Source of the DNA: Flavobacteriales bacterium
GTDB taxonomy: Bacteria; Bacteroidota; Bacteroidia; UBA10329
Length of the DNA: 64,000 nucleotides
Reading direction: 5' to 3'
Assembly (NCBI GenBank): GCA_044356305.1
Contig: JBIKWM010000015.1
Location: 1,552-65,551 of the forward strand
Each line of letters opens with the position of its first letter. Position 1 is the first letter of the stretch. Shown here piece by piece: positions 28,433 through 49,023 of this stretch. Under the pieces are notes generated by a model that saw only the letters and a list, made by a program, of their open reading frames with translations, was not told the DNA's origin and did not search any database. The position numbers and the translations under genes are program-made.

Positions 28433-28474
28433 AAACCATAATGGCTCGAATAAAACCAAATAACTGACGCACTC

Positions 28475-30910: not shown

Positions 30911-31116
30911 CTTATTTATAAATCTCAGGTTGGCAATAATTTTCAGATTTATTTATCTGAGCTCGAATTCAATTCGCAATAAGACGGCACCGACTGCGAT
31001 ATAGTACACCTCGATCGGTACACTCTCGTACTGCTTGCTACTTCCATTTTAACTACTCTGAAACCTGTCAATAAGAATAAAGTAGCTTAATTCCAAAAGA
31101 TCAATCATTACTTCAC

Positions 31117-32781
31117 TCAGAACCCGTAACCAACCGAAAAACCAATGGTGTGCGGACTTGCATACACAACATTAGGAAGGGTGGTACCAGCCAATGGGCC
31201 ATTCTCCTTAAGGTAACCATAAGTTGCTGTGACGCTCAAGCTTTGAACGATTTCATATGCTACAGTCAATCTTCCTGATAGCCTTGAAAGCTCTGTGCTT
31301 GACATGAAAGGGATTCCCTTTCCATCAGACCCACGCTCATATGTCGAACCTGGGCCTTTGAGTATATAGGTCATATCTGCTTTAACCCGAAATCGAGGAA
31401 CGGGCTTCACCCATAGGGCCGCATAAATCTCCTGGGCATTCTCTCCAAGGTAGTGCCCCAGACCATAGCTATTGCTCGAATATGTCGATACATCGAAGAA
31501 GTGTCGATATGCAACAGGGTTTGTTCGGGTGTACTCAATCACAATACTCGTATTTATTTTCCAAGGTAAAGACACTCTGGTTCCCATCTTCAAGCTAATA
31601 TGGTTTGACTGCTTCTGGGAATTGAACATGTTACTGATGCTCATCTCATCCACGAACACACTCAAATACAACTCTGTATATTTGAGCTGCCTACTCACCA
31701 AGTTAATGAACATTTGAGAGTTCTGGCCTCTGAAATTATGGTTAGAACCAGTACTGTTAAGAGTGTGGTCAACTGATTTATAGAAAAGGAATGGAATCAG
31801 ATACACTGGATTGAATTTGTCTGAATAGACAATTGAATTTCCAAATGTGAAATATAAGCGCTTCATAGGCCGAAATGTCCAAAGGTTGGCGGCAATATAC
31901 TTATCTCTAAAAACAGTGCGTAGCTCACCATTAGACTGCATATAGCTCGCTGTGCTGTCTATCACATCACTCACAAGCCAACCGTGCAAATATTCAAAAC
32001 TGAACCACTTGACCGGGTTAAGAGTAAGCCTTATCATCGGGAATGACGGAGTCCTTCCTGAAAGTATGTTGGAGCCATTATATGAGCTGCCCCAAACCAC
32101 ATTGTCCTTAACCACTCCAATGCTACCCCATTTGTTTGAAACAATGAAACCTCCTCTCATCTCGCTAAAATCGGTGCCCTTATAATTGGCGCCCATGCGA
32201 AGATTCAAGAATGCCGGATCAGATAGGTTAATTGACTCAGAATAGTCACGCAGGTCGGCGTAGAAGCCCAGGTGCTTGCCTATATAAGACTGAACTGATG
32301 CCCCAATGCGTCTCTGATAATAAAAGGATCCCCCAGTATACCATCCTTCAGCTCCCAATATTGGGTTCACGGTCAATGTGAATAATGAATCGCGGTAAAA
32401 GATCATGTCGTGCCTGCGTTGTCTTCTCCGCAAAGGGAACATACTGCCCCGTTTAAGTCCCTTACCAAAAAAATCGAACCCCTTGTATCCATCTGCCTCT
32501 TTGATATATTCCTGCATCATAAAAGACAACTCAGCCCTCTGCCTTCGGTTGAGGGTGCTATCTCTCTTCGCTACCTCAATCAGGTATCGGCTTATCTGTT
32601 TACGGCTCAAAGGCAATGCCACATCATTAAGGTCAACGGCCTTAATAGTTGACATCTCTTTTAGGAATTCATAGATACTCTCGTCAGATACATGTTGATA
32701 CACAACCTGACCTCTTACAGAGTTACTGCAAATCGCAAACGCAAAGACGAGCACTGCGACTCGCTCAAAAGGCGTTCTCAT
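31117..32781 (-). CDS. Outer-membrane beta-barrel protein, capsule-assembly Wzi-like
   Basis: Signal peptide from the Met at 32781 (MRTPFERVAVLVFAFAICSNSVRG). Alpha-helical N-terminal region followed by a beta-barrel ending in aromatic ...VGYGF. Convergent with the Wza/Wzc genes. Confidence 0.4.
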   Translation of the reverse strand: MRTPFERVAVLVFAFAICSNSVRGQVVYQHVSDESIYEFLKEMSTIKAVDLNDVALPLSRKQISRYLIEVAKRDSTLNRRQRAELSFMMQEYIKEADGYKGFDFFGKGLKRGSMFPLRRRQRRHDMIFYRDSLFTLTVNPILGAEGWYTGGSFYYQRRIGASVQSYIGKHLGFYADLRDYSESINLSDPAFLNLRMGANYKGTDFSEMRGGFIVSNKWGSIGVVKDNVVWGSSYNGSNILSGRTPSFPMIRLTLNPVKWFSFEYLHGWLVSDVIDSTASYMQSNGELRTVFRDKYIAANLWTFRPMKRLYFTFGNSIVYSDKFNPVYLIPFLFYKSVDHTLNSTGSNHNFRGQNSQMFINLVSRQLKYTELYLSVFVDEMSISNMFNSQKQSNHISLKMGTRVSLPWKINTSIVIEYTRTNPVAYRHFFDVSTYSSNSYGLGHYLGENAQEIYAALWVKPVPRFRVKADMTYILKGPGSTYERGSDGKGIPFMSSTELSRLSGRLTVAYEIVQSLSVTATYGYLKENGPLAGTTLPNVVYASPHTIGFSVGYGF

Positions 32782-34150
32782 GGACTTTCTTGCCGAAGAC
32801 AGTGAGAAAGACGACTTTAAAGTCAAGCCATAGGCTCCAATTTTCGATGTACCACAAATCATGCTTTGTCCGATTATACTTTTGGTCATAGGTCTCTGTA
32901 GGGCCTCTCCAGCCATTCACTTGTGCCCAACCCGTTATACCAGGTTTAATATAATGACGAATCATGTATCCGTCAACATCACGCTGAAAATCCTCGTTCA
33001 AAAGGGTTCGATGTGGTCGTGGCCCTACAACACTCATATCGCTCAAAAGGACATTTATAAACTGGGGCATCTCATCAATACTGTACTTGCGCATGAAACG
33101 GCCGATGCGTGTCACTCTTGGATCATCCTTAACGGTGCTTTGGGTATTGTTTTGTGCCGGGGCGTTCTGACGCATGCTCCGAAACTTGAAACACTTGAAA
33201 GGTCTACCTCCTTGCCCAATGCGCTCAGGCACATAAAACACAGGGCCAGGGCTCTCAAATAGAATTAGTAGCGATATGACCATCAGAACGGGTGAGAGTA
33301 TAACAAGAACACATGACGCGAAAATCAAATCAAACAAACGCTTCAATAATTTATTAACGAGATTGTCCAATGGAACTTCTCTTACATTCACGATTGGAAG
33401 GTCACCCACGCGATGGAACACGTAAGAAGCATTAAAAATTCGGTAATAATCGGGTATAAGGCGAATCCTGATGCCATGGAAATCAGCGATATCAACGACT
33501 GATTTAATCTTCTCCTCAGCAGACACGGGGAGTGCCAGATAAACTTCATCTATATCGTACTTCTCAATGACACCCTCGAGTATATCCAATGGACCAAGCT
33601 GAAGCTCAACAGGTGTATCTGAACCAACGAAATCATCGTCAAGAAATCCTATGACACGGTAGCCCAAAGCCGGATTTGAGACCATGAAACGGTAAACCTT
33701 AGTTCCCACTCTACCCGCCCCGAGCACTAGTACCTTTACCATGTGCCTGCCCCGCTGCCTCATGATTCTCAAATACTGATATAGAGCCACATAACCGAAA
33801 TTGCGCAATAGGAAAAAAATCCCGATGGTACCGAAAATCATCAGCCGTGAGTACAGCTCAATATTGAACAATAGGATACCTACAGAGACCGCTCCGCTGA
33901 GCATGAGGAAATCAATAATCTGAATTCTCACCCGAGAACTTACACGTTCGCGGAAGGCTAAGTTCTGATTGCTGAAAAACAAGACTATTGCTGTCCATCC
34001 AACTGAAATGACCAAGAGGGCGAAATAAGCATTAGGTCTGGGGCTGAGGTTTCCGAATTTGACCAACCCTGCCAGGTAGAACGAGATGACAATAAGGAAC
34101 AAGTCATACACAAGAAAATATCCAACCAGCCTCTTGTCTCTCTGAAGCAT
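32765..34150 (-). CDS. Undecaprenyl-phosphate sugar-1-phosphate transferase (WbaP/WcaJ family initiating enzyme)
   Basis: N-terminal TM bundle, CoA-binding-like domain, and the Bac_transf domain (PGPVFYVPERIGQGGRPFKCFKFRSM...DEMPQF...VVGPRP). The longest ORF runs to 34267. The Met at 34150 avoids overlap with the divergent gene. Confidence 0.8.
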   Translation of the reverse strand: MLQRDKRLVGYFLVYDLFLIVISFYLAGLVKFGNLSPRPNAYFALLVISVGWTAIVLFFSNQNLAFRERVSSRVRIQIIDFLMLSGAVSVGILLFNIELYSRLMIFGTIGIFFLLRNFGYVALYQYLRIMRQRGRHMVKVLVLGAGRVGTKVYRFMVSNPALGYRVIGFLDDDFVGSDTPVELQLGPLDILEGVIEKYDIDEVYLALPVSAEEKIKSVVDIADFHGIRIRLIPDYYRIFNASYVFHRVGDLPIVNVREVPLDNLVNKLLKRLFDLIFASCVLVILSPVLMVISLLILFESPGPVFYVPERIGQGGRPFKCFKFRSMRQNAPAQNNTQSTVKDDPRVTRIGRFMRKYSIDEMPQFINVLLSDMSVVGPRPHRTLLNEDFQRDVDGYMIRHYIKPGITGWAQVNGWRGPTETYDQKYNRTKHDLWYIENWSLWLDFKVVFLTVFGKKVHENAF

Positions 34151-34162
34151 CCCCTTCTGCTC

Positions 34163-35320
34163 TTGAGGCGCAAATGTACACGCGAAACAACTGGTAAAAA
34201 TTATAAGGCGCTCACTGATTCTGCTGAATCGAGATGTCCAGAACGATTGTTGTTCAAAATAGACCACCGAAGCTTGAAAGGCTTATTTTTGCGGCACCAT
34301 AAAAGGCCTGTGATTTTATTTGACGTTTACCATTTGCCGCAGTGGAACTTCCTGCGGAGCTCTATTCACTCGGTCGAAGCTGAGGAGCGGATAGTGTGCT
34401 GTGTGGACCGTTCTAAACTGGTGAGCATAATCCGTAAAGAACTCAACGGGGGCACGTTCATTCATTTCGGTTCCTATAGGAACAATTTTGGTTTTTTAAG
34501 CATGGTGTTCCTCATAATAATCCCTAGGATACTTTGGCTGATATACATACTGAGGAAGTTAAAGGTCACCTATGTTATTTCGGCAAACTACCAGTCAAAT
34601 CTTGCGGCCCGTTTCTGGGGCATCCCGAATATTGTATTCAATGATGATCCGCGTAAAGGGGTGATTCAAATTGCGAGATTTGCAGCAAATGTCACCTACC
34701 TTACTAAGGGCCTGAAATACCCGGGTACTCGAGAATTGAACTGTTTAAAAGAGTGGGCATACTTAGCTCCGAAGTATTTCAGCCCTGACCGAGGTGTTCT
34801 CACGTCTATGGGTCTCAGTCCCTTCGGTTACATAATGCTACGCGAGGTCAGCACTGAGACAACCAACTACTCCCAACAAAAGGCCGGCATGCTCATTACG
34901 GCTGAAGTGCCTGAGGGCGTCACGGTGATTCTGTCTCTTGAGAACAAGAAAATGCGGGCTCAGGTGCCTATTGGTTGGACGATACTTGAAGAGCCAGTGA
35001 ATGATATCCACAGTCTGATGTTCTTCGCCCGGGGTTTCGCGAGCACAGGGGATAGCATGGCCCGAGAAGCTGCGGAACTTGGCGCACCTTCATTCTATTC
35101 GGGCATTCGGGACATGGGTGCCAATAAGGTGCTGATTGATATGGGGCTAATGGAACAGGCCACAGCTGAGGAGGCCATCGCTAGGCTCTGTTCACTGAAG
35201 CCAATTACGGATGTTCAAGCAGAGGTCAACAGGCGCCAAGAGATAAGAGAGCGCATTGCCAGAGAATGGGATGATGTGAATGAATTGATACAAAGTCACT
35301 TGAAAGAAACCAAGAAATAA
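34163..35320 (+). CDS. DUF354-family protein (glycosyltransferase-like fold) in the polysaccharide locus
   Basis: 385 aa. The N-terminal region ...ILFDVYHLPQ...GIPNIVFNDD resembles DUF354. The true start may lie downstream of the first ATG. Confidence 0.45.
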   Translation: MRRKCTRETTGKNYKALTDSAESRCPERLLFKIDHRSLKGLFLRHHKRPVILFDVYHLPQWNFLRSSIHSVEAEERIVCCVDRSKLVSIIRKELNGGTFIHFGSYRNNFGFLSMVFLIIIPRILWLIYILRKLKVTYVISANYQSNLAARFWGIPNIVFNDDPRKGVIQIARFAANVTYLTKGLKYPGTRELNCLKEWAYLAPKYFSPDRGVLTSMGLSPFGYIMLREVSTETTNYSQQKAGMLITAEVPEGVTVILSLENKKMRAQVPIGWTILEEPVNDIHSLMFFARGFASTGDSMAREAAELGAPSFYSGIRDMGANKVLIDMGLMEQATAEEAIARLCSLKPITDVQAEVNRRQEIRERIAREWDDVNELIQSHLKETKK

Positions 35321-36624
35321 TGGACGTTTCAATTTTCGGGCTTGGATACGTTGGATGCGTGTCGATGGCATGTTTGGCCAAAGCCGGCCACCGCGTAATT
35401 GGGGTTGATGTGGCGGCTGATAAGAACATGCTGATTAACAGTGGCAGGGCCACAATTGTGGAAAAAGATATTGACGACCTGATTGAGGAAGGTTGGAAGA
35501 GAAATGCTCTGAGTGCCACTGCTGATGCTACCGAAGCGGTTATGAATTCGGAAGTGAGTATCATCTGTGTAGGTACACCCAACAACGACCGAGGAAATCT
35601 CCACCTTCGATATATTGAAGAGACAGGTAGAGCCATCGGCTTAGGGTTGCGTAAAAAGGAAGGCTACCATGTGGTAGCGATCCGCAGCACTGTGGTGCCT
35701 GGAACCTGCAGCAGCCTTGAAGAGATTATTGCTCACGAATCGGGCAAGACCCCTGGGGTTGATTTCAGTGTCCTCAGCAATCCCGAGTTCCTTCGGGAAG
35801 GAAGTGCAGTAAATGACTATTTCAATCCGCCAATGACCGTCATAGGATCTTCAGACACCAAAGCCGTTAAAGTGATAAGTCGGTTATATGAGAACCTTCC
35901 TGCGCCCATTATTGTAGTGGAGACCAAGGTGGCAGAAGTCATTAAATTCGTCAACAATTCATATCATGCCCTTAAAATAGCCTTTGCGAATGAAGTAGGG
36001 AATACGTGTAAGGCGTTGGGCATAGACTCGCATCAAGTGATGGAACTGTTTGGCCAAGACACGAAACTGAATATCTCTACTGCTTATTTCAAACCGGGCT
36101 TCGCCTATGGAGGTTCATGCCTTCCGAAGGACCTGCTGGGATTGATTGCAATGGCCCGAGATAATGATGTGCGAACCCCATTGTTAAAAGGCATTTCAGA
36201 AAGTAATGATGAGCAGGTCCAACGGGCACTCAGATTGGTTTACGCATCAGGAAAGAGAAAAGTAGGGATGCTTGGCCTTTCCTTTAAAGAAGGTACCGAT
36301 GATTTGCGTCTGAGTCCACACGTGGTTGTGGCCGAAACGCTTTATGGCAAGGGCTTCCAGTTAAGGATATTCGACAAGAATGTGCACGTATCAGGACTCC
36401 ATGGAAAAAACAAAGCATATATGGATCATCACCTACCTCACCTCAACTCTCTTATATCTGATGACTTGGAGGCTGTCATTGTTGAATCAGATGTCATTAT
36501 ACTAAGTCACAAAAATCAGATATTCAGCAACATACATCTTCGCTATCCCGAAAAATTGGTTATTGATCTTAACAGGAACGTACCGATTCTCAGCGCAGGA
36601 AATTATCAGGGCATATGTTGGTGA
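35320..36624 (+). CDS. GDP-mannose 6-dehydrogenase (AlgD-like nucleotide-sugar dehydrogenase)
   Basis: 434 aa. MDVSIFGLGYVGCVSMACLAKAGHRVIGVDV..., GGSCLPKD catalytic Cys, and a C-terminus ...QGICW. These features track AlgD along its whole length. Confidence 0.75.
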   Translation: MDVSIFGLGYVGCVSMACLAKAGHRVIGVDVAADKNMLINSGRATIVEKDIDDLIEEGWKRNALSATADATEAVMNSEVSIICVGTPNNDRGNLHLRYIEETGRAIGLGLRKKEGYHVVAIRSTVVPGTCSSLEEIIAHESGKTPGVDFSVLSNPEFLREGSAVNDYFNPPMTVIGSSDTKAVKVISRLYENLPAPIIVVETKVAEVIKFVNNSYHALKIAFANEVGNTCKALGIDSHQVMELFGQDTKLNISTAYFKPGFAYGGSCLPKDLLGLIAMARDNDVRTPLLKGISESNDEQVQRALRLVYASGKRKVGMLGLSFKEGTDDLRLSPHVVVAETLYGKGFQLRIFDKNVHVSGLHGKNKAYMDHHLPHLNSLISDDLEAVIVESDVIILSHKNQIFSNIHLRYPEKLVIDLNRNVPILSAGNYQGICW

Positions 36625-36633
36625 CCGTGTGGG

Positions 36634-37590
36634 TCACAGGCCAGGACACACTCTGTTGTAAACAGACATTAGCCGCCTAGCTACTGTGCGGTTGTCATAA
36701 CTGGTGAAATTGGGCCCAGCAGTACTGCGCGTACCGGTGCCCATCACCGTCTGAAGCGCATCGACATAAGCTCCGATTGACTTTGAAATGATGTGGTTCC
36801 CTGTTGAACCAATGCAGATTCTGCCCACTTCTCCCACATCGTTACTCACAATAGGTAGTCCATTAAGAAGTGCTTCTTTTATTACCTGAGGACTTCCTTC
36901 TGAGACGCTGCACATCAGTAGTGCATCTGAGGCCTTCATTACGGCTGTCACACCGGCCCTATCAAGGCCTTTAAGTTCTAAGAACTCAATATTGCGCTGT
37001 GGATTACGTTTGCGCAACTCATCAATAACGGAATGAGCAAATACTGGATCCTTCTCAGGCCGAGTGAACGATGAACAGAAAAGGACCACAAAAGCATTAG
37101 CATCAAGCCCTAATCTGCCCCGCGTGTTAGTTAAAGTACTCTCTTTCGATTCAAAATCAATACCGCATGGAATTACCTCACTAGATAACGGAAGTAGGGT
37201 CTGCAAGGGCGCGGATACCACAATCCGCGCATGGGCCAGCAGACCGGCAGCCCACGAGACCCACCTCTCTCGGCCCAGATTCAAGTCGCTGCCATGGTAA
37301 GTGACAACCCCTTTGGCGCGTTTCCAGAACATACTCCTTACGGCACACATTGCAGGCAGAGCCGAAAGGCCATAGTGTGCGTGCAATATTATAGGGTCCA
37401 TCTGCCATATTCGATTGCACAACTCGAAATAGGTCTTAAAGTATCCCATTATTCCTCCCTTACCAATCAAATGATGACAGACTTCTCCGGAATTGGTGAA
37501 GCGTTCCAAGGCTATCGCCTGCTCTTCTACAAAAGGATGTGGGCGGCCATCAGGATTACTCCTGCTCACGAAGATGATCTGTTCTTTCAT
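36634..37590 (-). CDS. Glycosyltransferase family 4 (GT-B)
   Basis: C-terminal GT4 motif region (...EGSPQVIKEALLNGLPIVSNDVGEV...). The start is trimmed to the Met at 37590 (MKEQIIFVS). Confidence 0.7.
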   Translation of the reverse strand: MKEQIIFVSRSNPDGRPHPFVEEQAIALERFTNSGEVCHHLIGKGGIMGYFKTYFELCNRIWQMDPIILHAHYGLSALPAMCAVRSMFWKRAKGVVTYHGSDLNLGRERWVSWAAGLLAHARIVVSAPLQTLLPLSSEVIPCGIDFESKESTLTNTRGRLGLDANAFVVLFCSSFTRPEKDPVFAHSVIDELRKRNPQRNIEFLELKGLDRAGVTAVMKASDALLMCSVSEGSPQVIKEALLNGLPIVSNDVGEVGRICIGSTGNHIISKSIGAYVDALQTVMGTGTRSTAGPNFTSYDNRTVARRLMSVYNRVCPGL

Positions 37591-38818
37591 TCTGTTTCTT
37601 CTGATGGTAAGCAGCCGCCAATAGTCCCAAGTAAATGAAAATGAACGAGCGGAAGGAAATAATGTACATCTGTCCACTCACTGAGATAACGAATTGAATT
37701 AGAAACATGAACCAAAACAACCTGACGTTCTCATCAGACCAATCCTTAAGAGGCATCCTGAAAAGGAAGGGTATGGCAAAAAGGAAAATGAGGTAAATCA
37801 AAAGGCCCACCACACCTCCGCCATGCAACCAAGTGAAGTAGTCAACATGGATCATTCTGTCCAAGTACATTCCCCCGCCATAATTTCCCATAGAGTTGAA
37901 CATCTCAAAACCAAAGAGTGATTTGGGAACATCGCGGAACATAAGCACCTCTTCGTAAATGATCCCGATCTCCTGATAACGCATTTCGCCTTCAAGGGAC
38001 TCTACAGCCATCTTATCAGCCCTGGCCTCCATTCGCTCAAGGAATGCCTGAGAATTTACCGTCACAAAAAATGCCAATCCCAATATGATAACCGATGGGA
38101 GCAGGCGAGAGAAAACGGTGCGGACACTACCGGTGTTCATGAAAGCCACGCCCATCACAACAATCAAGGGTGAGAGCCTTCTCAGAGTGAACACCAGCAA
38201 AACTGTACTTATGGCCGATGCGGCCAACTCGATATATCTTCTCATTAATGACCCTGATCCACCTAGGGTGGTCAAGGTCACAATAGTCATGAGCGAGATT
38301 AAATGCAGATCCGAGCCGAAGAGGTAACCTGAGAGGAATGAATCGCTCCCGTATGTGCTCACTCCGAAACCGAAAATATTGCTCAACATCACATAGATAA
38401 TGAATATGATCAGCGCTTTAGGAAACAATGCCCTCAATCTGGCCAGAACCCGCTGGGCATCCTTCACCCGAAAAGCCAAAGAGACAAGTATCAAAGGGAT
38501 GAACACCCTCATTGCAAATCTGGCCGAGTGTTCTACATCTGAGCTCCGCATTATCCCTATCAAAGTATATAGGACAAGAAAAATGAGCACGATATCAAGA
38601 CGCCTTAGTCCGGTCCGCGCATAATGAACCACTATGAATATATAAAAGAACCCGGCCCTCATAAGAGCGATCATGCCTGCTAACTCCGGACTTTGTGCCA
38701 TATCAAGCGCGATATTCAGGACAAATGCGGAGAACATGAAATCACCGAGATTCAATGACTTTACACTCAGGAAAAGCCAGAGCACAATGAGAAAAATGGC
38801 AACAACCCCAAAAATCAT
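37556..38818 (-). CDS. Wzy-like polysaccharide polymerase (O-antigen ligase family membrane protein)
   Basis: 420 aa, about 10-12 TM helices with a large loop. Located between the GT and acetyltransferase genes. Confidence 0.55.
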   Translation of the reverse strand: MIFGVVAIFLIVLWLFLSVKSLNLGDFMFSAFVLNIALDMAQSPELAGMIALMRAGFFYIFIVVHYARTGLRRLDIVLIFLVLYTLIGIMRSSDVEHSARFAMRVFIPLILVSLAFRVKDAQRVLARLRALFPKALIIFIIYVMLSNIFGFGVSTYGSDSFLSGYLFGSDLHLISLMTIVTLTTLGGSGSLMRRYIELAASAISTVLLVFTLRRLSPLIVVMGVAFMNTGSVRTVFSRLLPSVIILGLAFFVTVNSQAFLERMEARADKMAVESLEGEMRYQEIGIIYEEVLMFRDVPKSLFGFEMFNSMGNYGGGMYLDRMIHVDYFTWLHGGGVVGLLIYLIFLFAIPFLFRMPLKDWSDENVRLFWFMFLIQFVISVSGQMYIISFRSFIFIYLGLLAAAYHQKKQNERTDHLREQE

Positions 38819-39354
38819 CAGTTCCTGGTTCCAATGACTTTGGCAGGCACACCGCCCACTATGTCATATGCTATAATGTCTTTTGTCACCACACTGCATG
38901 CAGCCACCACAGCCCCTGTCCCTATTCGTACCCCGGGCATAATTACAGCCCTCCTTCCGAGCCAAACATCATCTTCTATAACAATTGCCTTCTCTTGGCC
39001 ATAACCTTGAGTGATGATTGGCCTGTCCACAGAACTGAACTCATGATTGCGTGTATAGAACAGCACTTCAGGCGCAATAAGCACATTATCGCCTATTGTA
39101 AGATCTCCATGCACTTCGCACAGTCGGCCCAAGCCGCTATTATTGCCAATGGAGATTCTGCCTTTTCCGAGATAACATTCGGCATCGATATTGACATTGG
39201 AACCTACATGCCTGAGAAACATACGGGCGAACGTAGCCCTCAAAGTCTTACTGGGCGGACCTACCAAAGGCAACGATGTCCTAGGCAAACGATAGGCCAA
39301 TAGATAATATCCGGCTATTCCTAACCACTTTCTCATCCTCGCATAATTTTCCAA
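38818..39354 (-). CDS. Hexapeptide-repeat sugar O-acetyltransferase
   Basis: 178 aa left-handed beta-helix (IGDNVLIAPEVLFYT...IEDDVWLGRRAVIMPGVRIGTGAVVAACSVV). Confidence 0.75.
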   Translation of the reverse strand: MENYARMRKWLGIAGYYLLAYRLPRTSLPLVGPPSKTLRATFARMFLRHVGSNVNIDAECYLGKGRISIGNNSGLGRLCEVHGDLTIGDNVLIAPEVLFYTRNHEFSSVDRPIITQGYGQEKAIVIEDDVWLGRRAVIMPGVRIGTGAVVAACSVVTKDIIAYDIVGGVPAKVIGTRN

Positions 39355-40037
39355 GTCATCCGCTTAAATTGAAAAGCTAAATGGTAGGCCAAATAGGCCC
39401 AAGTTCTTAACGGTCTCGAGCCTATGGGCTTAAAAGGATAACCGGACTTTTCGAGCTCCATGTTAAACCTAATTCCAATGGTCATGGAGTCGCGGTCATA
39501 GTTTGGTACTTTATCTTTAGTTCCAACCGACTTACCAGCTGTCTCATTCACACGTGGAAGCGGGCGCACTTCAATGGCACCTATTAGGCGCAGCATGTCC
39601 TTAAAATCTGACGAGAGGTTTTCCTTACGCAATAGCAACCGTGGTGATGCTGCTATGAAGTTTGAAGGATCGACAAATGCCAATGGCATGAATAATCTAA
39701 GATAGTTCTCAAAGCCGATACCCACCACTCTGACAAGAAAATAAGCAGGAAGGTTTGCCAAAAGCATCATGTACTTGACTACGGGCCAATTGCCATGATG
39801 CATGAAGTAAGACAAGGGATTGTTCTTGTACTTGAGATACTTGCTATACGTTCGATCTATGGGATCGCTAACCCCGTAGAACAAGTCGTAACCGCTGCAA
39901 TCATCAGGAATCTTGAAGGAATGTTTTGATCCTTCAGACCGACCTCCATATTGACTCATCAGTTCCTGCCTGACAGCTTCGCTCCCTGTGCGTGGAACCT
40001 CAATAAACACCGCTCTGTACCGGTCCAGAATAACCAT
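39333..40037 (-). CDS. Sulfotransferase-family protein
   Basis: 234 aa. PAPS 5'-phosphosulfate loop IEVPRTGSEAV, and an RDP-like 3'-phosphate motif region VSDPIDRTYSKY. Confidence 0.5.
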   Translation of the reverse strand: MVILDRYRAVFIEVPRTGSEAVRQELMSQYGGRSEGSKHSFKIPDDCSGYDLFYGVSDPIDRTYSKYLKYKNNPLSYFMHHGNWPVVKYMMLLANLPAYFLVRVVGIGFENYLRLFMPLAFVDPSNFIAASPRLLLRKENLSSDFKDMLRLIGAIEVRPLPRVNETAGKSVGTKDKVPNYDRDSMTIGIRFNMELEKSGYPFKPIGSRPLRTWAYLAYHLAFQFKRMTWKIMRG

Positions 40038-40040
40038 TTT

Positions 40041-41009
40041 TTATCCGAGTCTTGACTTGAGTTTATGGAACCTCATTCTGAGGCGGTGAGTGTCGAAGAG
40101 TATCATTCGGGCAGTATTTGCCAACGAACCGAAAATGAACCTCAAAGAATCGAACAACAGGTGTAGAAGGTTCATCGGGTTCAGGCAGGCGCTTCTGCGA
40201 CTTAGCCCACCGTAACCGAAGGATTCAAGTTCCTTTATGCACACTAACGAGTAGATGAAATTGACATATCCATCGGGGTCGAATTTACCTTTGTTTCTCC
40301 TGATCACACCGGCACCTACATTTCCATGAAAATGCCTATGGCTTTCTGGGACTACAAACTTCTTGTCCGGCCTTTCTGACACTTGGGTCTTCACTCCGAG
40401 CCACGAAACTATCTCTGCTACCCTTTCCGGATTCTCAAGTATGTCCTCATACCTGACTATGTGCTTGATCCACAAGGTCGAGAGGAATACCCTACTCTTA
40501 TACTGCCAATTGAGGGCTGATTGCAGTACATTTTGGCTAAATGAACGACCAGCCAGATTTGTGCTATTTGCCTTCGACAAATGAACATCCCTGCCGTCAC
40601 GCACCATCAGAATTGCCTTTGCATCGGGCCAGAGGTGCTCAAACTGACGCAGGTGATTAGTAGGAGGATGCTTCACAATGATGCACCTTTCGGTTGAATC
40701 TTCAAACCAAGGGTATCGCAACCTCAGGTGTTCTGCAATGATGGCCTCTGAGAGCGACTTAACATCCGTGTGTCTCTGGGCCATTGTCAGCACGGTGACT
40801 TTGCTCAATCCGAGATCATTGAACTGAGGCTCCTCAAAGAGGTACTCAGTGAGTCGGTCTGCAACTGGCAGCGTTGTCAGGCTCAAGAGTCTACTGACAA
40901 AGGCGGTTTCGTTCGTCACAGCCACGAACTCAAATCGCTCAAGCAAATCGGCCAACATTGTTGACCCGCTCCGGCTGTCGTATAAGATGAATGCCAGTTT
41001 AGAATTCAA
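40041..41009 (-). CDS. Sulfotransferase-family protein
   Basis: 322 aa. 5'-PSB loop YDSRSGSTML and 3'-PB motif MVRDGRDVHLS (R-D-x-R-D). Confidence 0.65.
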   Translation of the reverse strand: MNSKLAFILYDSRSGSTMLADLLERFEFVAVTNETAFVSRLLSLTTLPVADRLTEYLFEEPQFNDLGLSKVTVLTMAQRHTDVKSLSEAIIAEHLRLRYPWFEDSTERCIIVKHPPTNHLRQFEHLWPDAKAILMVRDGRDVHLSKANSTNLAGRSFSQNVLQSALNWQYKSRVFLSTLWIKHIVRYEDILENPERVAEIVSWLGVKTQVSERPDKKFVVPESHRHFHGNVGAGVIRRNKGKFDPDGYVNFIYSLVCIKELESFGYGGLSRRSACLNPMNLLHLLFDSLRFIFGSLANTARMILFDTHRLRMRFHKLKSRLG

Positions 41010-41092
41010 TGTCCTCCCTCTTAAATGCGCCTGCGCGAAATTACATGGTTATATCGGGCCTTGGCACCAGTTCTGGAACAGGTGTTGCCATA

Positions 41093-42331
41093 CTACAAGA
41101 AACTGTTGCCGGTTGTATTCACCATTCTGCGATGCAGCATGTAGTTCCAGAGGGTACCACTTATGAGCGTTGCAATTGCCAGCCCATTCAAGCCTAACCA
41201 TGGCACAGTGGTAAAAGCCAAGATCAATGTTATGACAAGCGATACGGCTGTAGACCGGACGAAGTAATCCCTCATATCGCTCAACTGAAAATATAGGCCA
41301 ACCGGCCCAAAGAAGACATTTAAAACGTTACATAAGATAACTGTAACGCAAAGAATCAAGAACAATGGCTCTGCTGGATAGCCATAGAACTTAAGAAACC
41401 AAGGACTGCAAAGCAGTGCCAACATAGCGAATGCAAAGGTGGTTAGCTTTGATAACCGTATTAGTTGTCTATGGCGGTCCGAGAGTTGGTGACCCTCAGC
41501 TAGCCTTGCCAGGCCCTTGGCAATATCCGCATTCAACGCTACCAGTGGCAGGTTGACAAGCTTACCGAGTTTCTGTACCACGGAATAAAGAGCCACCTGC
41601 CCCAAGGGCAAGAATGCCCCTGCCAAGAAGACCTCGAGCCACCCTTTAAATACCTGAAGCCCACTGCCCAAAGACAGCGAGAGGCCTTTAGTGTAAACTG
41701 ACCAAAAAAGCTTTGGGCTCATTCCAGAATGCTCAGGGGTTGACCCGTAAGACCGGATAAGGACTACAGCCAATGTGATGAGACATGTAATCAGGCCACT
41801 GGTCATGAGCATTTCAACTGGTTCGGCCTCATACTTGGATAGAAGAAAGACCATCACCACGGCCGATCGCAGGATGTCTTTGAACAGAATGTACCAATTA
41901 CCGTTCAGCCAGTAGCGCGACACCTCAAACAGGAACAAGGAGAACGAATATGCGATGAACGCGACCAATAACCTCCAATCAGCCAAGGTGCTTATTGATT
42001 CCAGAGAGGCTATCAGGGCCCCAACCATTGCTATCGCCACAATATTCAGTGCCACCCCCATGGCTTTCAATGTCAACAAATCAACATCAAAGGTCTCTTT
42101 TCCAGCAAATGTCCTTAGTGCCAAGAGACCTTGACCTACCCCTGCCAAAGTGCCGAAAGTGAGGAGATACCCATGTGTGAGAATGTACTCCCCATACTCC
42201 GTGTCGCCCCTGAACTGCATGTAGAGCTTAGCCAGAGCGAACGTAACCAGAACACTGCCGCCCTTAAAGAACAGCGAAGTGAATTGACGGATAACACCTC
42301 TTTTGTTCACCTTACCTGCCATTTGCACCAA
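41093..42331 (-). CDS. Wzx-type oligosaccharide flippase (polysaccharide biosynthesis protein, MOP superfamily)
   Basis: 412 aa with about 12 TM helices, in the Wzy/GT/ST operon. Confidence 0.7.
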   Translation of the reverse strand: MVQMAGKVNKRGVIRQFTSLFFKGGSVLVTFALAKLYMQFRGDTEYGEYILTHGYLLTFGTLAGVGQGLLALRTFAGKETFDVDLLTLKAMGVALNIVAIAMVGALIASLESISTLADWRLLVAFIAYSFSLFLFEVSRYWLNGNWYILFKDILRSAVVMVFLLSKYEAEPVEMLMTSGLITCLITLAVVLIRSYGSTPEHSGMSPKLFWSVYTKGLSLSLGSGLQVFKGWLEVFLAGAFLPLGQVALYSVVQKLGKLVNLPLVALNADIAKGLARLAEGHQLSDRHRQLIRLSKLTTFAFAMLALLCSPWFLKFYGYPAEPLFLILCVTVILCNVLNVFFGPVGLYFQLSDMRDYFVRSTAVSLVITLILAFTTVPWLGLNGLAIATLISGTLWNYMLHRRMVNTTGNSFL

Positions 42332-43193
42332 ATAAGCTGAAGTGCGCGAATGGATCTGACATCGTCATCCTATCCCGAAGTATCATGATGTCGTCAAAAT
42401 CTGTAGTGCGCTTTGAAACAGGCACATTTGTCAATCGTTTATTTCTTGCGGCATAAATTCCAAGTTTAAGGAACAGAGGCTGTGTCCAAGAATCTGAGCA
42501 ATTGAGTCCTTGATGGTCAAACTCGATTCCATTTCTGCCAATAACTTGGAGGCGCCCTTTTTCATTGGATGCGAGCCTGATCACGAGAAGGCATTCTCGC
42601 CATTCTCCAGGTTCGGATAAGAACTTTCTCCTCATCGTTGTTCGCCCTGATGAGTATGACTGCCAGATACCACCTGAAGCATCTGAACGGAGCCGCCCTA
42701 CTAGTGGCAGCCATGGACTGATTGGTTCTTTCTCCTTCTTTGTCCGTGTATGCAACTGCATACAAATCGCATCAGGAAATCCTGTCGCATCATCGGGGAA
42801 GGGTCTCATCCTAAAGTAAACTAGATAGGTCCCCTTGCCAATCTCAAATTCAGAGTTCTCTCCGAGCGAAATCTCCGTTCTGAAATCATTCCTTGGGTCG
42901 TTGTTACTGAGTTCAGCCCTCATAAAGAAAGTTGAATCAGACTCATCCATGACAATAACAGGGCAGTTACCGCTACAAACCCCAGCCTCGCTCAATAATC
43001 CAGTTTCAAAACCACAGCTGAAAATCAACTCAACCTCCTTCTGATTAAGCAGTTTTTGGATTTCCCGTTGAACTGGTCTTTCAGCATTCAAAAGAGTTCC
43101 TTTATCCAGATTGTCCGGCAATTTTTGGCTCATAGACCTGAATGGAATCAGAATCACGAGGCTAATAAGTCTAAGGGTCAAACTATACCCCAT
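42312..43193 (-). CDS. Secreted beta-jelly-roll protein, polysaccharide lyase family 7-like candidate
   Basis: 293 aa with a signal peptide. Three PL7-like motifs in canonical order: FRTEIS (for RSELR), CMQLH (for QIH), LFLKLGIYAARN (for YFKAGVYNQ). Confidence 0.35.
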   Translation of the reverse strand: MGYSLTLRLISLVILIPFRSMSQKLPDNLDKGTLLNAERPVQREIQKLLNQKEVELIFSCGFETGLLSEAGVCSGNCPVIVMDESDSTFFMRAELSNNDPRNDFRTEISLGENSEFEIGKGTYLVYFRMRPFPDDATGFPDAICMQLHTRTKKEKEPISPWLPLVGRLRSDASGGIWQSYSSGRTTMRRKFLSEPGEWRECLLVIRLASNEKGRLQVIGRNGIEFDHQGLNCSDSWTQPLFLKLGIYAARNKRLTNVPVSKRTTDFDDIMILRDRMTMSDPFAHFSLFGANGR

Positions 43194-43197
43194 CGCA

Positions 43198-43779
43198 TCA
43201 AAATTTCAACTCACTTTCCACCGCCCCGCACACACTGTGCGCAATGAGTATATGCATCTCCTGAATGCGCGCGGTGTCATCACTCGGAACAATCAGGGAC
43301 AGATGGCACTTGGGTGCCAACTGGCCACCATCGCGACCTGCAAGTGCGATGCATGTGCAACCGATGGCCAATCCTGCCTTGACAGCGGCCAGCACATTGT
43401 GGCTGTTGCCACTGGTACTTATAGCTATGATGACATCTCCTGGACTTGCCAGGGCCTCCACCTGCCGCGCGAAGATCTGCTCAAATCCAAGGTCGTTGCC
43501 GATGGCCGTGAGAGCGCTCGTGTCAGTTGTGAGAGCAATGGCAGCCAACGCCTTCCTGTCAAACCTGAAACGACCACTCAGCTCGGCTGCGAAATGCTGG
43601 GCATCGGCTGCGCTTCCCCCATTGCCACACAAAAGGACTTTGTTACCTGCATAGAGTGCCTTTATGATCAATTGCGCCATTGCAGCCATCTGAGGCGCCA
43701 ATGCGTTTCGCACAGATGTGAGGACCTCGGCATGGGCGTCTATCTCATCAATCATGCTCTTCTCCAACGGGCTCATCAC
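43198..43779 (-). CDS. gmhA: D-sedoheptulose-7-phosphate isomerase
   Basis: 193 aa SIS domain ([19 protein letters not shown]). Confidence 0.9.
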
Positions 43780-44723
43780 TTGCTCAAGTATCCATCGGTT
43801 GAACTAAGAAACGCGTGATAACGTGCAATACCCTCATTGAGTGACATGAACCGGTGCGCACATCCAGCGGCCCTCAATTGATTCAGATCGGCACAAGTGA
43901 ACTCCTGATATTTCCCTTTCAGGTGTTCAGGAAATGGCACCTCCGTCACCTTGCCATTTGGGCTGAGGCGTTGCAGCGAATCAGCCACAGCGGTGAAGGG
44001 TTCGGCCTTGCCGGTGCCACAGTTGAAAATCCCTGTGGTCGGGTGGTCCAGAAAATGAAGAACCACGGCAACCACGTCCTCTACAAAAACGAAGTCTCGT
44101 TTGAATCCCTCACTTCCCTCAAACAACTGCATGGATCCACCCTGCTGCAGCTGCCTGTAAAGATGGTACGCAACCGAGGCCATGTGCCCTTTATGGTTCT
44201 CTTGTGGCCCATATACGTTGAAGTACCGTAGACCCGTGACAGGCGCATGCAGGTTACCTTTTGCCCTACGATGGCGCACATGATTATCGAAGGCAAGCTT
44301 TGAGAAAGCGTATCCGTTTAGCGGCTTTTCACACATGTGCTCTTCGCGAAAACCCAATGTGCCATTGCCATACACTGCGGCACTGCTAGCATAGATAAGC
44401 GGCACATGCCACCTGTTGCAAGCATGCAAAACCTCCTTGCTGTAGAGGTAATTGTTCCGCATCAGGTAATCATTGTCCGTCTGGGTGGTATCTGAACACG
44501 CTCCTTGGTGAATGATGGCCGCATATTTCTGACTCGGCCCCTTTATAAGTGCAAGGAAATCGTCCCTGTGCATGTAGTCAGCATATTGCAGACCATTCAG
44601 ATTAAGAAACTTAGGGCCGTTCCCAAGATTATCGACAATTAAAATATCCCTGATACCACGCTTATTGAGCCCTTGCACAATGTTGCTCCCAATGAAGCCT
44701 GCTCCACCTGTTACAACTATCAT
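43776..44723 (-). CDS. hldD: ADP-L-glycero-D-manno-heptose 6-epimerase
   Basis: 315 aa. [33 protein letters not shown]... and the YxxxK SDR catalytic pair. Confidence 0.9.
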
Positions 44724-46144
44724 ATTGAATCCCTCTTCTGAATGATAGCAGTAGTTGAAAGTCCGGGGACCAGTGGCAGAATGACCGTCTGGTCCGCATG
44801 CTCACGCCCAACCACCGCCTCGGGTGAATAATCTCCGCCTTTGACCAGAACATCGGGTCTGATGAGCTCAATGATCTGGGCCGGAGTGTCCTCATCGAAA
44901 AAAGTCACATAGTCCACAACACCGAGATGCGCAATGAGATAGGCCCGGTCATCGAGGGTGTTGATGGGTCTTGTATGGCCTTTGAGTCTCCGAACGGATT
45001 CATCGGAGTTCAGTGCCACCACGAGCAGGTCGCCCAAGGCGGATGCTCTTTCCAAAAGACTCACATGGCCCCTGTGGAGCACATCGAAGCATCCATTGGT
45101 GAATACGATACGCTTGCCTTCAACTCGTAATCTGATCAGTTCTGCCGTGAGTTCATTAATGCCTAGAATTTTGGAATCAGTTCCCAGCTGTGACGCAAGT
45201 TCTACCTCCTTGCTGGTGACACGTGCCGTGCCAACATGGCCAACAGCGATACCTGCGGCCACATTGGCCAAGCGCAGTCTGAGATGCCATTCGGTGTGGG
45301 TAGACATGAGGAGGGCGACCATAGCGAGGACCGTGTCGCCCGCACCGGTCACATCGAACACTTCACGTGCCGATGCCGGACTGTGCACCGCTTCAGTCGC
45401 AGAGATGTAAGACATCCCGCGCTCCGATCTTGTGACCAGAACGGCCCCTATCCCATGTTCTGTCAACAGTTTTCGGGCAGCACCGGTCACAGACCCATCG
45501 TCATTTCTAACCTCATGCCCCGAAGCATCTCCCAGCTCCTTTAGGTTAGGGGTGATAAGGTCGGCTCCAGTGTATCGGCCCCAGTCCGCACTCTTCGGGT
45601 CAACCACCGAGTATATACCCATCTGTTGTGACATGCTGATGAGCCGTGTGCAGATGTCTGGGCTAAGGGTGCCTTTGGCATAATCACTAAGCACCAGTAC
45701 GGAGGCATGCTCCATGGCCCTGAATGCCCTGGTGAGTAACTCTTCCGTTCGTGTTGGCTCAATGACAGCATTCGCTACTTCGCGGTCTACGCGTACAAGT
45801 TGATGCTTGCCGGCCATAATCCTGGTCTTGAGCACTGTACAGGGCAAAGCGGCCACGAGATCGTGCTCAACGGTCAATTCATTGAGCCGGGCTGAGAGAA
45901 TCTCAGCCTCTCGGTCAGGCCCTACGAAAGAGAGAAGATGGGCACAGGCTCCGAGTGCCACGATATTGGACGCCACGTTGGCCGCACCCCCAGGCGCTTC
46001 AGTCACCTCGCTCTGCAGCACCACCGGCACAGGGGCCTCCGGGCTAATACGATGTGCTGCGCCTGTCACATATCGGTCAAGCATGGCATCGCCAATGACA
46101 ACGATGCGAAGTTGACTGAAATCAGGGAGTGACATGGCCGACAA
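44720..46144 (-). CDS. hldE: Bifunctional D-beta-D-heptose 7-phosphate kinase / heptose 1-phosphate adenylyltransferase
   Basis: 474 aa. N-terminal PfkB kinase, C-terminal cytidylyltransferase (VFTNGCFDVLHRGHVSLL). Confidence 0.9.
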   Translation of the reverse strand: MSAMSLPDFSQLRIVVIGDAMLDRYVTGAAHRISPEAPVPVVLQSEVTEAPGGAANVASNIVALGACAHLLSFVGPDREAEILSARLNELTVEHDLVAALPCTVLKTRIMAGKHQLVRVDREVANAVIEPTRTEELLTRAFRAMEHASVLVLSDYAKGTLSPDICTRLISMSQQMGIYSVVDPKSADWGRYTGADLITPNLKELGDASGHEVRNDDGSVTGAARKLLTEHGIGAVLVTRSERGMSYISATEAVHSPASAREVFDVTGAGDTVLAMVALLMSTHTEWHLRLRLANVAAGIAVGHVGTARVTSKEVELASQLGTDSKILGINELTAELIRLRVEGKRIVFTNGCFDVLHRGHVSLLERASALGDLLVVALNSDESVRRLKGHTRPINTLDDRAYLIAHLGVVDYVTFFDEDTPAQIIELIRPDVLVKGGDYSPEAVVGREHADQTVILPLVPGLSTTAIIQKRDSI

Positions 46145-47436: not shown

Positions 47437-47473
47437 TATTTCCTGATTGATATGATTTATAATATGTTGAAAT

Positions 47474-48469: not shown

Positions 48470-49023
48470 TCCTCCACTGAACGGCCAGCGGTAGGCACAT
48501 CCACATCGGGCCGGTCGGGTGCCTCAAAAGGGGCATCGAGGCCAGTGAAGTTCTTGATCTCGCCTGCGCGGGCCTTTTTGTAAAGCCCTTTCACATCGCG
48601 TCTCTCACACTCCTCGAATGAGGTGTTCACGTAAACCTCCACAAAGTCATCGGCACCGATAATGTCTTTGGCCATTGTTCGGATGTCGCGCGTGGGGCTC
48701 ACAAAACAATTGATGGTGACAATGCCACAGTTCACAAAAAGCTTGCTCACCTCCGCTATCCTGCGGATGTTCTCAGTGCGGTCATCCTCACTGAAGCCCA
48801 AGTTGTTGCAGATGCCTGTGCGCACATTGTCGCCATCGAGCACCTGGGTAAGAATGCCTTTTTCGGCCAACTTCCGCTCAAGTGCCGCAGCTATGGTGGT
48901 CTTTCCCGACCCGCTAAGACCGGTCATCCACACCACCGAACCACGCTGCTTGAGCATGGACTCCTTATCGCCCCGCTGAAGGATGCGATCGAAAGTAGGA
49001 TGGATGTTTTTGCCTGTCAACAT
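48421..49023 (-). CDS. cysC: Adenylyl-sulfate kinase (APS kinase)
   Basis: 200 aa. P-loop GLSGSGKTT and the conserved APS-kinase core. Confidence 0.9.
   Translation of the reverse strand: MLTGKNIHPTFDRILQRGDKESMLKQRGSVVWMTGLSGSGKTTIAAALERKLAEKGILTQVLDGDNVRTGICNNLGFSEDDRTENIRRIAEVSKLFVNCGIVTINCFVSPTRDIRTMAKDIIGADDFVEVYVNTSFEECERRDVKGLYKKARAGEIKNFTGLDAPFEAPDRPDVDVPTAGRSVEECADQVLAAIMGRIRA

Follow-up and report, generated by a model that had tools for sequence, protein, structure and literature searches.

Gene content and organization of the locus

The 64,000-nucleotide window analysed in this study, taken from contig JBIKWM010000015.1 of a Flavobacteriales bacterium (assembly GCA_044356305.1), contains a tightly packed polysaccharide locus that spans 27.7-49.0 kb and includes a gene for a GDP-mannose 6-dehydrogenase of the AlgD type (Table 1). 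All the open reading frames (ORFs) named in a preliminary description of this stretch were recovered at their positions; two sulfotransferases, CysDNC and GmhA/HldD/HldE, which lie in the same array, were absent from that description. Judging from the gene content, the region is likely to form the core of a Wzx/Wzy-dependent locus for a capsule or exopolysaccharide (EPS), directing a sulfated, O-acetylated acidic heteropolysaccharide with about one mannuronate per repeat and accompanied by an extracytoplasmic lyase.

On the plus strand, 3' of the aspartyl-tRNA synthetase (AspRS) gene, lie the genes for Wza and then Wzc. The plus-strand pair encoding the DUF354-like protein and the dehydrogenase diverges from a minus-strand pair encoding a Wzi-like protein and a phosphoglycosyl transferase (PGT), and a minus-strand array of 13 genes converges on it from the other side. 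In the order of transcription, this array encodes CysC, CysD, CysN, HldE, HldD, GmhA, the lyase-like ORF, the Wzx candidate, a sulfotransferase, ORF234, a hexapeptide acetyltransferase, the Wzy candidate and a glycosyltransferase of family 4 (GT4). The guanine-cytosine (GC) content per gene was 43.5-48.3% from Wza through the lyase-like ORF (27683-43193), intermediate for GmhA, HldD, HldE and CysNDC (50-55%), and 56-58% for the flanking AspRS, DeoC and aldehyde dehydrogenase genes. The biosynthetic core is thus a 15.5-kb low-GC island, opened by the Wza gene (GC fraction 0.46, against 0.57 for the neighbouring AspRS gene), and its composition suggests that a cassette, either exchanged horizontally or distinct in composition, lies between conserved anchors. 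A promoter and terminator scan performed no better than on shuffled sequences, and tRNAs were the only matches in an Rfam scan.

Table 1. Predicted genes of the polysaccharide locus, with positions in the window
Feature	Coordinates	Strand	Evidence
Wza-type outer-membrane polysaccharide export protein	27683..28432	+	PF02563 Poly_export E = 1.3e-17 and SLBB domains; 64% identical to L066 homologue
Wzc-type chain-length determinant/tyrosine autokinase	28475..30910	+	Wzz, GNVR and AAA_31 domains; TIGR01007 151 bits, above cut-off 108
Wzi-like outer-membrane protein	31117..32781	-	PF14052 Caps_assemb_Wzi 24.6 bits, E = 1.5e-5, below gathering score 30.1
Initiating PGT, WcaJ type (undecaprenyl-phosphate glucose-1-phosphate transferase)	32765..34267	-	PF02397 E = 5.8e-66; five hydrophobic segments
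DUF354-type GT-B glycosyltransferase	34310..35320	+	Weak PF04007 match, E = 0.014; stop overlaps algD start
GDP-mannose 6-dehydrogenase, AlgD type (predicted to make GDP-mannuronate)	35320..36624	+	PDB 1mfz match, retained residues, neighbour-joining clade
GT4-family glycosyltransferase	36634..37677	-	Glyco_trans_1_4, Glyco_transf_4 and Glycos_transf_1, about 1e-6, all above gathering scores
Candidate Wzy polymerase, polytopic membrane protein	37556..38818	-	At least 9 hydrophobic segments; loop of about 80 residues at about residues 253-334
Cytoplasmic hexapeptide-repeat O-acetyltransferase, WcaF/maltose-acetyltransferase type	38818..39354	-	PF00132 E = 3.8e-17
ORF234, probable second sulfotransferase (family 2 type)	39333..40037	-	Transitive homology; PRTG motif
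Sulfotransferase	40041..41009	-	PF13469 Sulfotransfer_3 E = 7.6e-13; PF00685 E = 3.1e-7
Candidate Wzx flippase	41093..42331	-	At least 8 hydrophobic segments; position conserved in syntenic loci
Extracytoplasmic beta-jelly-roll lyase-like protein, divergent PF14099 member nearest polysaccharide lyase families PL20/PL13, with PL7-like motif cores	42312..43193	-	Profiles, AlphaFold2 model, Foldseek
GmhA, HldD, HldE: ADP-L-glycero-D-manno-heptose pathway	43198..46144	-	NCBIfam-type models
CysN, CysD, CysC: synthesis of 3'-phosphoadenosine 5'-phosphosulfate (PAPS), which donates sulfate	46153..49023	-	Same strand, tightly packed with heptose genes

Syntenic loci were reached through homologues of the Wzx and Wzy candidates in contigs of Flavobacteriales metagenome-assembled genomes (L066 and L068; GCA_021741155.1, JGI/Logan samples). 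These share the order AspRS-Wza-Wzc-Wzi-PGT-DUF354-AlgD-GT4-Wzy-acetyltransferase-sulfotransferase-sulfotransferase-Wzx ... HldE-CysNDC-DeoC. Comparisons with the window proteins showed 74-79% identity for CysNDC, 67-68% for AlgD, 60% for both the DUF354 glycosyltransferase and the acetyltransferase, 48-52% for the sulfotransferases, 49-51% for the Wzy candidate, 42-44% for GT4 and 41-42% for the Wzx candidate. The lyase, GmhA and HldD are missing from these relatives: positions 4452-6471 of L066 hold a short-chain dehydrogenase/reductase (SDR) and Gmd (GDP-mannose 4,6-dehydratase, PF16363, 1e-149) where the window has lyase, GmhA and HldD (42312-44723). Such a replacement suggests that one sugar module has been swapped for another, and the low conservation of GT4, Wzx and Wzy is in keeping with it. 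Since relatives that have the same AlgD and glycosyltransferases as well as Wzx and Wzy do without the lyase, it is not an obligatory companion of this AlgD, and its earlier portrayal as the usual companion of mannuronan synthesis could not be maintained.

The dehydrogenase and the assembly and export genes

The dehydrogenase is a protein of 434 amino acids with three UDPG_MGDP_dh domains (Pfam). Its best match among solved structures, by far, was AlgD of Pseudomonas aeruginosa (PDB 1mfz, E = 1e-130), aligned from residues 1-434 to residues 1-436, and its C-terminus reads ...QGICW, which bears out the preliminary statement that it tracks AlgD along its whole length, including the GICW end. The best match to a UDP-glucose dehydrogenase (Ugd) reached E = 6e-72 and covered residues 3-354 only, so the C-terminal nucleotide-binding domain is specifically AlgD-like. 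A previous group-entropy analysis has indicated that His217, Leu126, Ala263, Arg122 and Cys213 are specific to GDP-mannose dehydrogenases, with His217, Ala263 and Arg122 found in 43 of the 45 sequences examined (PMC4794789). The window enzyme retains R122, H217 and A263 together with the catalytic C268; relative to P. aeruginosa AlgD, Leu126 is replaced by Val and Cys213 by Asn, a residue common at position 213 in the bacterial clade. An internal contrast is provided by Methanosarcina homologues (37% identical), which have K, L and G at the positions of R122, H217 and A263. A phylogeny had been suggested at the outset as a check on the AlgD assignment. In the neighbour-joining (NJ) tree, the window enzyme, P. 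aeruginosa AlgD and 11 bacterial homologues formed one clade in 100 of 100 bootstraps, outside which fell the UDP-sugar dehydrogenases (E. coli Ugd, E. coli WecC and the Ugd of 3vtf) and the Methanosarcina type. The structure match, the retained residues and the clade agree with the preliminary proposal that the predicted product is GDP-mannuronate.

The Wza, Wzc and Wzi proteins make up an export set that is typical of group-1-like capsules. Wzc ends (30851-30910) in YGYGYGYGYGYGYGYGYGYY, a (YG)n tail whose dipeptide repeat is unusually regular and which presumably represents the tyrosine autophosphorylation cluster. The Wzi-like protein, which probably starts at Met46 of a 599-residue ORF, has homologues in both L066 and L068 (49-51% identical) that carry precomputed PF14052 matches. 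A reading of the locus as an O-antigen cluster was rejected, given the presence of Wza, Wzc and Wzi and because neither Wzz nor WaaL was found. Initiation had been ascribed to a WbaP-like transferase, but the PGT scored above the cut-off of the WcaJ model (TIGR03023 WcaJ_sugtrans, 432.4 bits against 410.75) and below that of the WbaP model (244 bits against 403), and is of the WcaJ type.

The two remaining glycosyltransferases differ in how readily they were recognized. The GT4 enzyme, whose real start probably lies near 37590, matched known families directly. For the DUF354-type enzyme, as for ORF234, profile searches of the PDB with the family alignment gave nothing significant, and both were resolved by Pfam searches with distant Cyclobacterium homologues. 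The Cyclobacterium homologue of the DUF354-type enzyme, 35% identical and likewise encoded directly upstream of algD, matched PF04007 (1.1e-11) and Glyco_transf_4 (1.2e-6). In L066 and L068 this enzyme is the second most conserved island gene product after AlgD. Because its gene is coupled to algD and highly conserved, it is proposed as a candidate mannuronosyltransferase.

The loop of the Wzy candidate contains several invariant Arg residues, and a 49%-identical syntenic homologue (P0023) matched PF04932 Wzy_C (E = 6.8e-6, 26.4 bits, below the gathering score of 31.7). A JGI fragment that is 100% identical to the Wzx candidate has been named 'O-antigen/teichoic acid export membrane protein'.

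The jelly-roll protein and the modification genes

The lyase-like ORF carries FRTEIS, MQLH and FLKLGIYAA, in that order, behind a hydrophobic N-terminus. The signatures of PL7 alginate lyases are R(S/T)E(L/V)R, Q(I/V)H and YFKAG(V/I)YNQ, and a Q-x-H plus Tyr constellation is common to other jelly-roll lyase families. A word-indexed homologue search gave no match beyond the ORF itself. With HMMER, an exhaustive search through 1.84 billion cluster representatives yielded 14 proteins at E <= 1e-3, from which it follows that the family is very small. Invariant in the alignment of the 14 are G74, N75 and P77 (within a CSGNCP motif), R104, E106, Y122, Q145, H147, W197, G212, N230, G244 and Y246, with K242 near-invariant. 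As their core residues are conserved across the 14 homologues, the R-T-E, Q-x-H and K-x-G-x-Y motifs are not a product of chance, and the conserved polar constellation argues for catalysis.

Profile searches placed the protein outside PL7. The PL7 model PF08787 gave no match to the window ORF even at E <= 10, and PF14099 ('Polysaccharide lyase', a family that contains the PL20 glucuronan lyase and the PL13 heparinase I) scored 24.3 bits (E = 3.3e-5), under its gathering score of 29.9. PF14099 was matched by all 14 family members (best 1.5e-35) and PF08787 by two, weakly (about 1e-4); since all 13 homologues match PF14099, membership of the window ORF holds by transitive homology. The family profile had a single match in the PDB, the PL20 endo-beta-1,4-glucuronan lyase 2zzj (E = 2.5e-6), which family member P0011 also matched directly (1.4e-4); a PDB search with protein P0012 returned low-complexity noise only. 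An AlphaFold2 model from the 14-sequence alignment, which replaced a single-sequence model with a pLDDT of 32, is an all-beta jelly roll (pLDDT 80.8, pTM 0.80). Foldseek searches of the PDB with this model ranked 2zzj first (E = 5e-10, TM score 0.68 normalised to the target), followed by PL7, PL14 and PL36 alginate lyases, with PL7 at about 1e-7. As modelled, the fold is compatible with a lyase. Residues 1-36 are disordered in the model and start with a signal-like hydrophobic stretch, and lipoprotein-type N-termini occur in six of nine close homologues, so that an extracytoplasmic location is a family trait. The right label is 'divergent PF14099/PL20-like' and not PL7. Of the secreted PL7-like jelly roll announced in the preliminary description, the fold, the hydrophobic N-terminus and the ordered, conserved motif cores have stood, and the family has not.

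Non-lyase jelly rolls (botulinum-toxin Hc, calreticulin) appeared in Foldseek at E-values similar to those of the lyases. Such lectin-like and toxin-receptor-binding folds would suit a capsule-associated protein that is a non-catalytic carbohydrate-binding or structural ConA-like domain, or else a hydrolase. This alternative could also draw on the Pfam score below the gathering cut-off, on weak matches of two family members to Laminin_G_3 and on the PL20 template, which has Q-F-I and not Q-x-H at the aligned position. It is nevertheless improbable, because the family conserves polar residues of catalytic type (R104, E106, Q145, H147, Y246, K242) at the motif positions of jelly-roll lyases, every homologue matches a lyase family, and the sole PDB sequence match and the top fold match are both a lyase.

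If the protein is a lyase, its gene context bears on whose polymer it would cleave. The lyase gene starts 4 nt after the gmhA stop, its own stop overlaps the wzx start, and it is co-directional with the array, so it is probably co-transcribed. Its GC content matches that of the island, and SusC/SusD or other catabolic genes were not found nearby. On two other contigs, the lyase homologues P0003 (L073, 1-4318) and P0004 are each encoded directly upstream of a PF13469 sulfotransferase, the former also directly after the 3' end of hldE, which hints at a link between this branch of PF14099 and sulfated-polysaccharide loci. All this speaks against the idea that a genuine lyase forages here on foreign sulfated uronans of algal or host origin, as a recently inserted passenger outside capsule biogenesis. 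That idea would account for the absence of the gene from the syntenic loci, for its position at the island boundary within a module swapped for SDR and Gmd in relatives, and for homologues found outside polysaccharide-synthesis settings: three of the six informative contexts are unrelated to such synthesis, and a metagenome scan with the trimmed alignment returned one short locus in a non-polysaccharide context. We consider foraging slightly less probable again than a non-lyase function, and a lyase acting on the cell's own polymer remains the preferred assignment.

The other genes of the array concern modification of the polymer and supply of precursors. A hexapeptide O-acetyltransferase is present, as previously described; its best NCBIfam similarities are to the maltose O-acetyltransferase and WcaF families (both E = 1.6e-19, below cut-offs). 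Enzymes of this type are cytoplasmic left-handed beta-helix proteins, and the acetylation of alginate is carried out in the periplasm by AlgI/J/F/X. ORF234, which had no direct Pfam match, has a Cyclobacterium homologue (29% identical) that matched PF03567 Sulfotransfer_2 above the gathering score (7.7e-7), and its PRTG motif is invariant and stands at the expected PAPS-binding position. All three PAPS genes exceeded their model cut-offs (CysN, NF003478, 593 bits against 590; CysD, NF009214, 446 against 413; CysC, TIGR00455, 240 against 139). The same holds for HldD (TIGR02197, 385 bits against 274.6); GmhA fell just below its cut-off (TIGR00441, 207.3 against 209.45) and HldE below its own (NF008454, 484 against 521). 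HldE, HldD and GmhA were considered as proof of heptose in the polymer and were kept as a possibility only: heptose is no more than possible because HldE is conserved beside different sugar modules in the relatives.

These results also bear on the alginate-like chemistry that had been proposed for the locus, namely that Wzx/Wzy, in place of Alg8/Alg44, would assemble an O-acetylated polymer rich in mannuronate, with a PL7 alginate lyase alongside. The absence of Alg8 and Alg44 was confirmed: Alg8, Alg44, AlgK, AlgE, AlgG, AlgX, AlgL and AlgI/J/F-type families were not found among the large ORFs of the window, though such genes may lie elsewhere in the genome, and the AlgD step is all that the locus has in common with alginate synthesis. 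The genuine AlgD orthologue accords with the proposal, as do the acetyltransferase in the same array, the jelly-roll protein there that carries the R-T-E, Q-x-H and K-x-G-x-Y cores, the PL7 alginate lyases among the good Foldseek matches, and the weak PF08787 matches of two distant lyase-family members. However, with a single glucose-phosphate transferase for initiation and no more than two glycosyltransferases, the locus is predicted to build a short hetero-repeat and not polymannuronate; a C5-epimerase was, like AlgI/J/F/X, AlgK/E and Alg8/44, not found in the window; and the acetyltransferase is of the cytoplasmic WcaF type. In addition, the jelly-roll protein has no PF08787 match and its nearest solved relative is a PL20 glucuronan lyase, two sulfotransferases with PAPS genes indicate sulfated chemistry, and syntenic relatives keep AlgD without the lyase. 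An alginate-like polymer is accordingly very unlikely. Least probable of all is that the AlgD-like enzyme uses another nucleotide sugar, so that no mannuronate is made; Val126, Asn213 and the lack of a GDP-mannose synthesis gene in the locus would agree with this, but the enzyme retains three near-invariant GDP-mannose-dehydrogenase positions as well as the complete C-terminal domain that binds GDP, the AlgD clade was recovered in every bootstrap, Asn213 is common across the bacterial clade, and syntenic relatives also encode Gmd, another user of GDP-mannose.

Proposed pathway and relation to known systems

Sequence evidence shows to which enzyme families AlgD, the PGT, Wza/Wzc, the acetyltransferase, one of the sulfotransferases, CysDNC and the products of the heptose genes belong, as well as the jelly-roll fold, the conserved motif residues and the synteny with the Flavobacteriales loci, and the following pathway is proposed. 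The WcaJ-type transferase would start the repeat unit by transferring glucose-1-phosphate onto undecaprenyl phosphate, and the AlgD-type dehydrogenase would convert GDP-mannose to GDP-mannuronate. Two cytoplasmic GT-B glycosyltransferases would add the next sugars, the DUF354-type enzyme probably mannuronate and the GT4 enzyme a third one, which may be heptose supplied through the neighbouring ADP-heptose genes. The cytoplasmic hexapeptide acetyltransferase would O-acetylate the repeat and the two sulfotransferases would sulfate it, also in the cytoplasm, with PAPS from the adjacent CysDNC. The repeat would then be flipped by the Wzx candidate, polymerised by the Wzy candidate and exported through Wzc/Wza. 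The jelly-roll protein would cross the inner membrane and most likely cleave the uronate-containing polymer by beta-elimination, with His147 and Tyr246 as base and acid and with Gln145 and Arg104 neutralising the carboxylate, and could in this way trim or release the cell's own polymer.

Several observations weigh against the reading of the locus as a complete Wzx/Wzy-dependent system of this kind. The sugars assigned to both glycosyltransferases are inferred only. The Wzy candidate has no Pfam match of its own, the Wzx candidate has neither a Pfam nor an NCBIfam match and four of its homologues are likewise without a Pfam match, and hhalign comparisons of the Wzx and Wzy family alignments with E. 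coli WzxC, RfbX, WcaD and WbbH gave no signal. Missing similarity of this sort is not unusual for the Wzx and Wzy families. The Wzy-dependent assembly put forward in the preliminary description is therefore backed by the Wza/Wzc export and initiation genes, and its Wzx and Wzy assignments are without direct profile support. For the lyase, the PF14099 score below the gathering threshold, the similar scores of non-lyase jelly rolls, the absence of the gene from syntenic relatives and the unrelated contexts of half of the informative homologues also count on this side. Lastly, HldE and CysDNC, with their host-like GC and their conservation beside variable modules, may also serve lipopolysaccharide or general sulfur metabolism.

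The locus, favoured here as the source of a sulfated, mannuronate-containing heteropolysaccharide, is a new representative of the Wzx/Wzy capsule loci, marked by an uncommon sugar, mannuronate, a sulfation module and a rare lyase subfamily; its newer aspects are the sulfation genes and the lyase subfamily. According to the synechan study, other bacterial EPS gene clusters, and those outside cyanobacteria, were not known to contain sulfotransferases (PMC8205485), although sulfate has been reported in some marine bacterial polysaccharides (PMC3210612). A stronger version can be offered only tentatively, and we would not expect it to hold in full: a glycosaminoglycan-like capsule in a non-cyanobacterial member of the Bacteroidota, with a doubly sulfated, O-acetylated, mannuronate-containing repeat and its own PAPS supply, involving a DUF354-type glycosyltransferase that would be the first non-processive enzyme of its kind to depend on GDP-mannuronate, and a jelly-roll lyase subfamily, not classified before, that is specialised for sulfated uronate polymers. 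If the favoured prediction holds, the locus would be a route by which a heterotrophic bacterium makes a sulfated polysaccharide containing mannuronate, and one that is compact and genetically defined. Three poorly understood families would then be assigned a function: DUF354 would gain a function as a GDP-mannuronate transferase and the tiny PF14099 branch one as a lyase for sulfated uronans, the short Sulfotransfer_2-like family would also gain a function, and all three families would be potential tools for engineering or analysing sulfated glycans. The general view of uronic-acid polymer synthesis is left unchanged by the window locus.

The occurrence of AlgD-type genes elsewhere was surveyed in a scan of one genome per species, which returned 63 loci. 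Those of 44-55% identity belong to Bacteroidota, Anaerolineae, Acidobacteriota, Clostridia, Planctomycetota and Proteobacteria. WcaJ-like PGT genes lie 1.5-3 kb from the AlgD-type gene in eight loci, one of which has Wza and Wzc as well. When 109 ORFs neighbouring the gene in 13 such loci were sorted by Pfam family, 19 were GT1/GT4 glycosyltransferases, 7 GT2, 6 asparagine-synthase-like and 5 heparinase II/III-like proteins, and sulfotransferases and Bac_transf accounted for 3 each; the 25 most frequent families included none specific to alginate. AlgD-type enzymes that feed heteropolysaccharide assembly lines are thus widespread, though they have been little studied.

Some of these neighbouring genes recur together. 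A heparinase-III-like protein is encoded within a few kb of algD in 5 of the 13 sampled neighbourhoods, from four or five phyla (L005 8058-9998, L007 2424-5006, L023 4516-6822, L026 6333-8372 and L034 6188-8119), and that of L005 matches PDB 4mmi (3.7e-10). It is usually accompanied by an AsnB-like ORF, an asparagine-synthase-like amidotransferase found in L005, L007, L016, L020, L023 and L034, and this apparently uncharacterised module might provide a lyase, an enzyme resembling a C5-epimerase or a step that forms uronamides. Archaeal homologues of the dehydrogenase from Methanosarcina and relatives (L033, L035-L062), 35-40% identical and with K, L and G at the GDP-mannose-specific positions, end in ...GLCW as does AlgD, and a DUF354-like gene often lies 1-2 kb away.

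Outside the locus, the window holds genes for rpoC, rpoB, ribosomal proteins, nusG, secE and tuf within 711-15438, with a cluster of five tRNAs (12076-14050) followed by a XerC-like tyrosine recombinase gene (14539-15438). Two JGI metagenome contigs (L064, L065) have this context too, with an EF-Tu that is identical. Beyond the array, a Y-family polymerase-like gene of the impB/mucB family (51629-52993, minus strand) adjoins a DnaE2-like gene for a second Pol III alpha subunit (53064-56048, plus strand), and this pair (51629-56048) resembles an error-prone ImuB/DnaE2 mutagenesis cassette.

Comparisons with characterized systems showed which parts of the locus have precedent. The dehydrogenase is 48% identical to P. 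aeruginosa AlgD (PDB 1mfz/1muu/1mv8) from end to end and has its three domains, C268, R122/H217/A263 and GICW end. Unlike algD, its gene lies outside an alginate operon, being translationally coupled to a DUF354-type glycosyltransferase gene in a Wzy-type capsule island. The lyase-like protein resembles the PL20 lyase of Trichoderma reesei (2zzj), whose FRVGLYAN aligns with the K-x-G-x-Y strand of the window protein. However, identity is 14%, the window family adds the conserved CSGNCP and has Q-x-H where the fungal enzyme has Q-F-I, and it is bacterial, mostly lipoprotein-anchored and found in biosynthetic loci. With PL7 alginate lyases (A1-II', PsAlg7A) it shares the jelly-roll fold and the three motif cores in the same order, and it differs from them in its lack of a PF08787 match, in fold scores below those for PL20 and in the flanks of the motifs.

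At the level of the whole locus, the route to a uronic-acid polymer had been called unusual, which was not supported: the E. coli colanic-acid locus, a reference Wzx/Wzy locus, encodes the glucuronosyltransferase WcaA, the EPS of Rhizobium alamii, treated as Wzx/Wzy-type, contains one mannuronate per repeat (bioRxiv 10.64898/2026.08.21.746188), and AlgD-type genes are found amid glycosyltransferase and PGT genes in many phyla. Uronic acids are commonplace on Wzy lines, and for mannuronate there is a precedent. The predicted product resembles R. alamii EPS in being a heteropolysaccharide with one mannuronate per repeat outside synthase-dependent alginate, and the R. alamii system differs in being alphaproteobacterial, with sulfation not reported and unrelated gene content. 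The E. coli colanic-acid/group-1 loci (wza-wzc-wcaJ-wzxC-wcaD, WcaF/WcaB) share with the window a WcaJ-type initiator, Wza/Wzc, a cytoplasmic hexapeptide acetyltransferase, a uronate in the repeat (predicted for the window) and Wzx and Wzy membrane proteins, of which those in the window are candidates. In contrast to colanic acid, the uronate donor in the window would be GDP-mannuronate and not UDP-glucuronate, only two glycosyltransferases are present, two sulfotransferases with PAPS genes, a Wzi-like protein and an in-operon jelly-roll lyase are added, and the Wzx and Wzy candidates have no detectable similarity to the E. coli proteins. The synechan (xss) cluster of Synechocystis 6803 (PMC8205485) belongs to another phylum and differs from the window in its XssS/R/Q-type regulators, which were not seen here, and in the adjacent PAPS genes, the mannuronate and the short repeat found or predicted in the window; like the window locus, it is of the Wzx/Wzy type and has two sulfotransferases of different Pfam families (PF13469 and PF03567-like).

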